The translations under genes and the position numbers were made by a program. Below are positions 1,778 to 2,827 of a stretch of 64,000 nt of DNA, piece after piece (position 1 is the stretch's first letter; the number at the start of each line of letters is the position of its first letter). The stretch lies in IMG/VR virus record IMGVR_UViG_3300045988_068751; one strand, written 5' to 3'. This DNA is from a virus. The notes beneath the pieces were generated by a model. It ran no database searches. It was given only the letters and a program-made list of their open reading frames with translations, and was not told where the DNA came from.

Positions 1778-2272
1778 ATGGAAAGTACTAATGAATTAGT
1801 AACAGCAGCTGAAGCTAGAGCAGAAGGCTTGAGCTTAGACGGAGTTGCGAACAATAGATGCATTACTAAGCAACAGTTCAATGATAACCTACCGTCGGGG
1901 GGGGGTATTGCTGACGCTATAGATTTATTAAACGGTTCACTAGGCGGCAGCACCCTAATATTCTTTAATAACACTACTACAGACACTACAATGGGTATAT
2001 CAATCGTAAGTATGTATGGTCAAAGCACATCGGCTACACCAGATATTCCTGCTTCATCTATGGTGGTATACCCTATAGCAGGTGCTATAAGAAATGTAGC
2101 TTTGTTTGGCAATAGTGTGATTGGAAGTAATATTTACGTAGCATTCCTATTAAATAATGCAAAGAATATGAATCACTATTCTAGTTATGAAACAGATAAA
2201 CTTATTATAGGAACTAATCAGAATATACCAGTACAGGGTCTACTTGCCGTTATGTGTATAAACAATACATAG
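1778..2272 (+). CDS. hypothetical structural-type protein (T/N/G/S-rich). It ends in TAG and is in the same frame as the next ORF; contains G9 tract 1897-1905 (S-G-G-G)
   Basis: ORF track; TAG at 2270-2272; (2285-1778) divisible by 3. Confidence 0.55.
   Translation: MESTNELVTAAEARAEGLSLDGVANNRCITKQQFNDNLPSGGGIADAIDLLNGSLGGSTLIFFNNTTTDTTMGISIVSMYGQSTSATPDIPASSMVVYPIAGAIRNVALFGNSVIGSNIYVAFLLNNAKNMNHYSSYETDKLIIGTNQNIPVQGLLAVMCINNT
1897..1905 (+). repeat. G9 homopolymer inside ORF 1778..2272
   Basis: seen directly. Confidence 0.9.
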
Positions 2273-2284
2273 CAAGTATTTAAA

Positions 2285-2827
2285 ATGACAAATAAAATTG
2301 CAACAGAACAATATTTAATTGATTTAACTGGTGGAGGTACAAATACTCCAACCAAGTGTGCCACTAGAGATAGAGTAGAGTTCTTCGGACTTGAAACTAA
2401 CGATAATTACGCTAATAATCAGTTAGTTAAGGAAGAGGATATACAGTTGTCAACATTTCAGTATGACTTCAATATACATGTTTCAATAACTAACTCTGGG
2501 CTTACGTCTAAATCCTATGACTTTGTAGCAGATGTTTACATAGATGGAGTTCCAGATGGGTTTATAACAATTCCTAGGTCTGGAACTCTAGACTATCAAG
2601 GGGCAACTTTCTTTGACAGAAACTTCCACTTTAATTTACCAACTAATTTAACTAATGTCTCTAAATTATTGTTCACTGGATATTTCAGTACATACAGGGT
2701 GACTGTAGATGCAGATAGTGTAACAAATAACGCAGTATGCCAATCTGGGGTAACTACTGAAATACCAATAAATCAGGCATATATAGGAGGTGACACAGCT
2801 AATATTTCTATAAATGTAATTATATAA
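2285..2827 (+). CDS. hypothetical structural-type protein; possibly the C-terminal part of a TAG read-through fusion with 1778..2272
   Basis: ORF track; same frame as upstream ORF, separated only by TAG + 4 sense codons. Confidence 0.55.
   Translation: MTNKIATEQYLIDLTGGGTNTPTKCATRDRVEFFGLETNDNYANNQLVKEEDIQLSTFQYDFNIHVSITNSGLTSKSYDFVADVYIDGVPDGFITIPRSGTLDYQGATFFDRNFHFNLPTNLTNVSKLLFTGYFSTYRVTVDADSVTNNAVCQSGVTTEIPINQAYIGGDTANISINVII

Follow-up and report, generated by a model that had tools for sequence, protein, structure and literature searches.

Two same-frame reading frames separated by an amber codon in a human-gut phage are probably distinct genes of a modular, phase-variable cluster

Introduction

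The viral DNA recorded in IMG/VR as IMGVR_UViG_3300045988_068751, of which a stretch of 64,000 nucleotides (nt) was analysed (the window, hereafter), comes from a phage of the human gut with a low G+C content (~37%). Near its beginning, two open reading frames (ORFs) on the + strand lie in the same frame and are separated by a single amber stop codon (TAG): ORF1 (1778..2272, 164 amino acids, aa) and ORF2 (2285..2827, 180 aa). A preliminary description of this region had proposed that the two are halves of one structural protein, made as a short and a full-length isoform with the help of a suppressor transfer RNA (tRNA). The analysis presented here indicates that ORF1 and ORF2 are probably two separate genes of a modular, phase-variable cluster, with the translation of ORF2 expected to begin at its own ATG. 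The frame that they have in common across the TAG is a trait of one sublineage and would most likely be incidental.

The cluster comprises three genes, ORF1, ORF2 and a 129-aa ORF here labelled ORFb (1154..1543, + strand), the first of the switchable genes. These would encode small modular surface (adhesin-like) proteins of a phage of ~175-185 kb, in which a short conserved N-terminal module presumably anchors each protein to the virion and is followed by a linker rich in Gly and then by a beta-rich C-terminal domain, which is exchangeable and may bind glycans or receptors. Slippage of poly-G tracts in the linker codons would turn ORFb and ORF1 ON and OFF. ORF2 appears to be ‘locked on’ in the window genome, where the linker site reads GGT GGA GGT and holds no homopolymer, whereas some relatives have lost it by way of a repeat of 5 nt.

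Layout of the Amber Junction

ORF1 is closed by the amber codon at issue (2270..2272, + strand), which is followed by a stop-free 12-nt spacer, CAA GTA TTT AAA (2273..2284), and by the ATG at position 2285 with which ORF2 begins; ORF2 itself ends with TAA. Both starts fall at 2 mod 3. The coordinates, the common frame and the four-codon spacer reported in the preliminary description have been borne out, as has its estimate of a read-through product of ~349 aa (164+1+4+180 = 349). The predicted junction of such a product is …MCINNT-X-QVFKMTNK…, alternatively written …AVMCINNT-X-QVFKMTNKIATEQ…, while a free ORF2 protein started at its own ATG would begin with (M)TNKIATEQ, and ORF1 ends in …CINNT.

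When all in-frame + strand stops of the window were scanned, the TAG at 2270-2272 was the sole TAG with long open stretches on either side (171 and 184 codons), in agreement with the claim that this is the only TAG-separated pair in one frame. Equivalent pairs split by TAA nonetheless occur at four places on the same strand (28280, 35855, 36791 and 38413), where a single stop lies 1-3 codons upstream of the next ATG. Since TAG closes 12 of the 59 long + strand ORFs, including that of a 1246-aa protein, one TAG case among five single-stop pairs is what chance would give, and the geometry of the junction does not exceed this expectation. The two halves had also been described as alike in the manner of one structural protein; a BLASTP comparison of ORF1 with ORF2 gave no similarity (E = 13).

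ORF2 as a Complete Gene

A full-library HMMER search with ORF2 returned 45 hits. Among the 23 that reach its first five residues, 22 begin within their own first 5 residues, in homologs down to 22-40% identity. Classical read-through extensions have neither a start nor a family of their own, and their frame is conserved; the Met of ORF2, by comparison, is a conserved initiation site found at residue 1-5 in these 22 homologs. The remaining hit, P0058, reads …CINNTQQVFKMTNK… with an apparent Gln at the position of the TAG. Its DNA (L075) holds TAG, and the Gln was rejected as an artefact of a gene caller using genetic code 15, in which TAG is read as Gln.

The first 55 residues of ORF2 form an N-terminal module (MxNKIATE…TKCATK…Y..NQLVKEeDi) that stands at the start of proteins of 147-358 aa whose C-terminal parts are unrelated; one of these has a BACON domain (39.3 bits) and several others look beta-propeller-like. 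Stops are found directly upstream, in frame, of the gene carrying this module in L126-L132 and L212. An AlphaFold2 model built on an 18-sequence alignment reached a predicted local distance difference test score (pLDDT) of 91.9 and comprises a nine-strand beta-sandwich (residues 58-179) preceded by two short helices; the single-sequence model (pLDDT 34.8) was unusable. Matches to this fold are weak and adhesin- or pilin-like, with Gram-positive pilins at a template modelling (TM) score of ~0.3 and a phage ‘Binding domain, N-terminal’ protein at a TMq of 0.48. Because homologs start at the same Met, the module occurs with other C-terminal parts and the model is confident and self-contained, ORF2 constitutes a whole gene, the start of which is deeply conserved.

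The body of ORF2 also occurs behind other heads, namely the ORF1 N-terminal module (L097), a third N-terminal module (L098/L099) and the first 12-16 residues of ORFb (L002, L005). One alignment, A2, was overly diverse for searching loci, and a trimmed alignment of the N-terminal module was used instead. ORF2 holds a tandem 5-nt duplication, TAGAG TAGAG (2371..2380, + strand), and the loss of one copy, which shifts its frame, was found in at least six relatives (L122-L125, L209, L211); other small insertions and deletions inactivate ORF2 as well.

ORF1, ORFb and Their Homologs

ORF1 is likewise modular, consisting of an N-terminal module of ~40 aa (MESTNELVTAAEA..NRCITKQQFNDNLP), a GGG encoded by poly-G and a variable body. 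The consensus of the module, MESTNELVT.AEA…C.TK..FN.NLP, is found at 48-69% identity in the IMG/VR loci L038-L048, whose bodies differ, and ORF1-type proteins stand alone there, with lengths of 146-159 aa (L038-L046). The N-terminal motif of ORFb, NKCPTTKQVNDALKSMGG, is homologous to that of ORF1 (BLASTP, E = 8e-5 over the motif). The homolog search that had been proposed as a check for one continuous protein has therefore turned against that proposal: ORF1-type and ORF2-type homologs are separate proteins that have been lost independently, and none covers both ORFs, the top query coverage being 57%, in a deletion chimera.

All 27 hits of the first protein search were at least 199 aa long, a pattern that points to a lower length limit by which odd fusions are enriched. 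The chimeric hits of this search are contiguous in their own contigs and joined at microhomologies of 3-9 nt; their in-frame state was not counted as evidence.

Homopolymer Tracts and ON/OFF States

ORFb and ORF1 each contain a poly-G tract directly behind their common N-terminal motif, of 8 G in ORFb (1225..1232, + strand; encoding Gly-Gly(-Gly)) and of 9 G in ORF1 (1897..1905, + strand; encoding GGG). Four G/C runs of at least 8 are present in the window, compared with 0.27 expected from its composition (at most 2 in 300 simulations), and two of the four occupy homologous sites in ORFb and ORF1. The other two, a C9 at 10558-10566 and a G9 at 53659-53667, are apparently intergenic.

The lengths of these tracts, taken from assembly consensus, were compared in loci L009-L034 and L133-L211 and are polymorphic in both genes. 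The ORFb tract ranges over 7-11 G in the IMG/VR set, where 9 G, an out-of-frame length, occurs most often, and over 6-11 G in metagenome contigs; that of ORF1 ranges over 6-11 G and 5-10 G, respectively (~78 assemblies). Within the IMG/VR set, 14 of 28 assemblies have ORF1 in frame, as do 23 of 49 metagenome assemblies, the corresponding counts for ORFb being 9 of 29 and 14 of 41. Two loci, L009 and L024, differ at no position over 1.67 kb, yet their ORFb and ORF1 tracts measure (9,9) and (10,10). An excess of long G/C runs in a coding region, together with frame-switching variation in length among near-identical genomes, is what is found at contingency loci. This variation looks like phase variation by slipped-strand mispairing, where slippage would be the process behind the observed differences.

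All eight combinations of ON and OFF states of ORFb, ORF1 and ORF2 are present, and the window is among the few with all three ON. Where ORF1 is ON, ORF2 is ON in 11 cases and OFF in 3; where ORF1 is OFF, the counts for ORF2 are again 11 and 3. ORF1 and ORF2 vary in state without relation to each other, and the two genes have been inactivated independently. The tract is also found outside the immediate relatives. In ORF2-type genes of L097 (3510-3520) and L207 (~2040), the GGG site consists of 8 or 11 consecutive G, and at the same linker site in L038-L048 (~position 3110) there is a run of 9 C (TPPQ), of which variants with 8 C and 10 C are frameshifted.

Conservation of the In-Frame Layout

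The TAG and the 12-nt spacer are kept in ~27 loci from IMG/VR, GenBank and Logan and in 73 metagenome loci. Among the 73 metagenome junctions, 71 are identical, one has GTA changed to ATA and one, on a degraded contig, reads TAG TAA. At the 89-99% identity of these close relatives, retention of the TAG can be regarded as uninformative. The layout is missing from two diverged lineages whose gene order is the same. In L095/L096 (ORF2 identity, 37%), TAA closes the ORF1-type gene, the spacer measures 13 nt and the frames differ; in L207, the stop of ORF1 is TAA, the spacer measures 11 nt and the frames again differ. Programmed read-through would call for a conserved stop type and a conserved in-frame relation, and both, although kept in ~100 close relatives, are absent from L095/L096 and L207.

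The Amber-Suppressor tRNA and Stop-Codon Usage

A tRNA with anticodon CTA, as expected of an amber suppressor, is predicted at 25500..25572 (+ strand) by ARAGORN and by the Rfam tRNA model (62.7 bits), 23 kb from the junction. Its 26-nt core is found exactly in 19 IMG/VR contigs, 12 of which also carry ORF1/ORF2. A looser pattern search gave nothing beyond its own lineage and one other contig, and no match was present in the annotated phage collection. The tRNA is close to no other tRNA of the window, the tRNA-Gln included, and its anticodon stem is closed by an A-C mismatch.

Stop-codon usage was compared between the window and MT835470, an unannotated 117-kb scaffold from human faeces with which window positions 1-5317 are common at ~97% identity. 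Coverage by ORFs under the standard bacterial code (code 11) and with TAG as sense is 0.80 and 0.855 for the window and 0.978 and 0.979 for MT835470. Backup stops are no closer behind TAG-terminated genes than behind others. Among the long minus-strand ORFs of MT835470, the strand of its portal and terminase genes, 0 of 49 end with TAG (TAA 43, TGA 6), compared with 4 of 53 on the + strand; this scarcity may reflect TAG avoidance in late genes or a plain preference for TAA.

A scan for further clients of the suppressor gave only short or overlapping candidates. One lies at 45274-45915 of the window, where a sense TAG at 45310 would let the ATG at 45274 replace the TTG start of a 176-aa ORF (45385..45915). 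A second TAG-split site in MT835470 (83035) was rejected, as its translation resembles the antisense of a minus-strand gene.

Alternative Explanations

The best surviving alternative is a programmed and selected amber read-through. According to this explanation, the tRNA(CTA), acting late, would partly suppress the TAG to give ORF1 (164 aa) and a functional 349-aa fusion with two binding domains on one anchor, and the poly-G tract of ORF1 would decide whether ORF2 is made free or fused. Several observations speak for it and weigh against two independent genes. In 17 related genomes, none of the 73 columns of the tRNA(CTA) is variable, compared with 166 of 418 flanking columns (40%), and because of this difference the tRNA is judged to be under strong purifying selection; a predicted means of decoding TAG is thereby available, and it co-occurs with the locus in 12 contigs. 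The junction is the sole site in ~176 kb (window and MT835470) at which TAG as sense would join two long ORFs. The TAG has been kept in ~100 assemblies of close relatives, where it is never replaced by TAA or TGA. The frame is open across the junction in two variants: in L002 through TAG->CAG and ATG->ACG, with nearly all of ORF1 deleted, and in L004, present in 2 samples, through a 21-nt deletion of TAG..ATGACA. Relatives of the ORF1 module reside in fully TAG-recoded phages, and ORF1-type genes of such relatives do hold sense TAGs. The favoured explanation also has two limits of its own, namely that tract lengths are those of assembly consensus and not of reads, and that we infer the virion location and adhesin role from neighbouring genes, a BACON-bearing homolog and weak fold matches.

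Other data speak against this explanation. The layout is missing from both diverged lineages with the same gene order (L095/L096 and L207), the start of ORF2 is deeply conserved, and about half of the assemblies have ORF1 out of frame while ORF2 remains intact. Conservation of the TAG says little at such divergence, and no backup-stop signature is seen behind TAG-terminated genes. L002 and L004 are given little weight because each carries several further deletions and the search from which they came returned nothing below 199 aa. A read-through fusion selected as an isoform is accordingly possible yet unsupported, and we regard it as unlikely. What has stood of the preliminary proposal of suppressor-dependent long and short isoforms is its prerequisite, a tRNA(CTA) (62.7 bits) invariant in 17 genomes; the notion of one structural protein has not, the homologs being separate proteins. 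The tRNA looks functional and may give rise to the 349-aa ORF1-X-QVFK-ORF2 fusion as a minor by-product whenever ORF1 is in frame.

Within the L002 segment 1180-1215 (window 2268-2292), six transitions (T->C or A->G) are clustered in ~24 nt, including TAG->CAG, TTT->TCT, AAA->AGA, ATG->ACG and AAT->GGT; outside this cluster the locus is 97% identical over a 1.4-kb match.

A broader version, which we hold to be slightly less likely still, is that a gut phage of ~180 kb with the standard code has retained a functional amber suppressor with the ORF1/ORF2 junction as its main client, so that, in combination with the poly-G switch of ORF1, three outputs would arise: ORF2 alone, ORF1 together with ORF2, and the two-domain fusion. 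If true, adhesin modules would here be stacked in a suppressor-dependent manner, and the phage would be a living intermediate between the standard code and the TAG recoding completed by relatives.

Full recoding to code 15, with TAG always read as Gln in late genes and 1778..2827 as one 349-aa gene, has been largely refuted and is very improbable. The suppressor tRNA encoded by the phage fits it, as do the carriers of the ORF1 N-terminal module, L038-L048. These phages are clearly TAG-recoded: reading TAG as sense lifts their ORF coverage to 0.74-0.97, from 0.29-0.66 under code 11, and they have ORFs with 2-7 in-frame TAGs, of which the three tested (349, 485 and 571 aa) gave the Pfam matches Peptidase_S74, Peptidase_M15_3 and Phage_tail_C. 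Neither the window nor MT835470, however, has the low code-11 coding density, restored by a sense TAG, that marks recoded genomes; the portal and terminase genes are whole under code 11, there are no other convincing in-frame TAGs, and homologs of ORF2 begin at the same Met. TAG is in use as a terminator of 12 long ORFs of the window, that of the 1246-aa protein included. A recent nonsense mutation that cut an ancestral 349-aa gene into a split gene or pseudogene is just as improbable, for while the frames match and the spacer is stop-free, no homolog spans both halves, each half has a standalone homolog family and an N-terminal module of its own, and the arrangement of TAG and ATG is stable in ~100 assemblies.

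Genomic Context

ORFb, ORF1 and ORF2 belong to a + strand operon in the order small HExxH membrane protein, 279-aa ORF, ORFb, ORFc, ORF1, ORF2, holin-like 80-aa protein and 1246-aa protein. The 67-aa ORF here labelled ORFc (1575..1778, + strand) overlaps the start of ORF1 with its stop (TAATG), and it is kept upstream of ORF1-type genes in L003, L095, L097 and L207. No match was found in Pfam or PHROGs for ORF1 or ORF2. The assignment of the 80-aa protein as holin-like is based on weak PHROG hits only, and the 1246-aa protein has a glucosaminidase domain.

MT835470 is the only match to the window in the annotated phage collection, and it continues for 111 kb upstream of the common region, where portal and large terminase genes lie just upstream of the operon on the opposite strand. 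In the recoded relatives, the ORF1-type gene is flanked by tail-fibre genes and an M15 peptidase gene. The virion module to which the preliminary description had assigned the pair is thus only partly right: the operon adjoins packaging genes, and recoded relatives place the ORF1-type gene near tail fibres, but holin-like and glucosaminidase-domain genes follow directly. The related metagenome contigs measure 171-220 kb, which suggests a genome of ~175-185 kb.

Beside the ORF1-type gene of one recoded relative, L042, lies the gene of a 485-aa M15 peptidase (3469-4926) whose Pfam match covers residues 2-80 only. On visual inspection, M15-like sequence reappears close to the C terminus of this protein, and the insert between might be an intein or homing-endonuclease-like.

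Among L001-L005, L075, L202-L210 and proteins P0001-P0027, a mosaic of deletions is seen in window positions 300-6800, with joins at microhomologies of 3-9 nt. Examples are 393-887, 431-943, 379-1886, 1196-2242 and 1201-2277, plus several inside the 1246-aa gene. These deletions give many chimeric proteins in public assemblies and may be circulating variants or library artefacts; L004 is present in two samples.

Further along the window there are 28 tRNA genes, one transfer-messenger RNA (tmRNA) and one RAGATH-34 RNA. The tmRNA (19056-19577), missed by ARAGORN, matches the full length of Rfam model RF00023 with 85.8 bits, and a phage tmRNA could matter for ribosome rescue after read-through. 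The RAGATH-34 match (21124-21231) scores 121.5 bits against a gathering score of 60.7. One tRNA (18416-18486) has an apparent 6-nt anticodon loop (‘???’ in ARAGORN), and a ‘tRNA-Leu(CAA)’ (23358-23432) measures 75 nt and lacks the long variable arm that a bacterial tRNA-Leu would be expected to have. No match to window positions 30-52 kb was found in the annotated phage collection.

Comparison With Known Systems

Programmed stop-codon read-through is classically represented by the A1 protein of phage Qbeta, a C-terminally extended virion protein. The junction described here resembles this case in having an in-frame coding stretch behind the stop that would give a long and a short isoform. It differs in that what lies downstream is a gene complete in itself, whose start is deeply conserved, and in that the same-frame layout lacks conservation. 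Considered by itself, the TAG junction is best taken as two ordinary neighbours, and annotation should hold ORF1 and ORF2 apart.

A further parallel is offered by the fibre and receptor-binding proteins of phages, in which a conserved N-terminal anchor is combined with an exchangeable C-terminal domain. ORFb, ORF1 and ORF2 similarly combine conserved N-terminal modules with many unrelated C-terminal domains, swapped between genes, and in relatives such genes lie near tail-fibre and lysis genes. Unlike typical members, these proteins have only 129-180 aa, no Pfam or PHROG match and a weak match to an Ig-like pilin or BACON-type fold, and their attachment to the virion is presumed.

Recoding of TAG to Gln (code 15) with phage-encoded suppressor tRNAs has been reported in gut phages (bioRxiv 10.1101/2021.08.26.457843; PMC9523058; PMC10607447). 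The window phage has a tRNA(CTA) and low G+C (~37%) in common with them, and its ORF1-module relatives have in-frame TAGs in tail-fibre and lysis genes. In contrast to such phages, the window reads well in the standard code, TAG terminates 12 long ORFs and only one TAG could join long ORFs; the tRNA(CTA) is also not close to the phage’s own tRNA-Gln. A standard-code phage with a strongly conserved suppressor and recoded relatives should be a tractable system for the role of suppressor tRNAs before recoding, with one candidate client at hand.

With regard to the tracts, Campylobacter phages have been described to carry hypermutable polyG tracts in their receptor-binding genes and in further genes (Sorensen et al., 2021, Cell Rep 35:109214; cited as ref. 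58 in PMC12823448). The gut phage agrees with them in having runs of ~8-11 G inside genes of the host-interaction type, with lengths that differ between near-identical genomes and set the frame ON or OFF, and in having several tracts per genome, from which combinatorial states arise. It departs from those phages in three respects. It represents a ~180-kb human-gut lineage, possibly with a host among the Bacteroidota (suggested only by the BACON-bearing homolog); its tracts, known from assemblies alone, occupy one conserved site, the Gly linker past the N-terminal module, in paralogous genes; and the tract persists as poly-C in TAG-recoded relatives.

To our knowledge, homopolymer phase variation of phage surface genes has been documented for Campylobacter phages only. 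The locus of ORFb, ORF1 and ORF2 appears to extend it to a human-gut phage group of high abundance, represented by ~100 independent assemblies, in which the tract has been conserved across a change of the genetic code.

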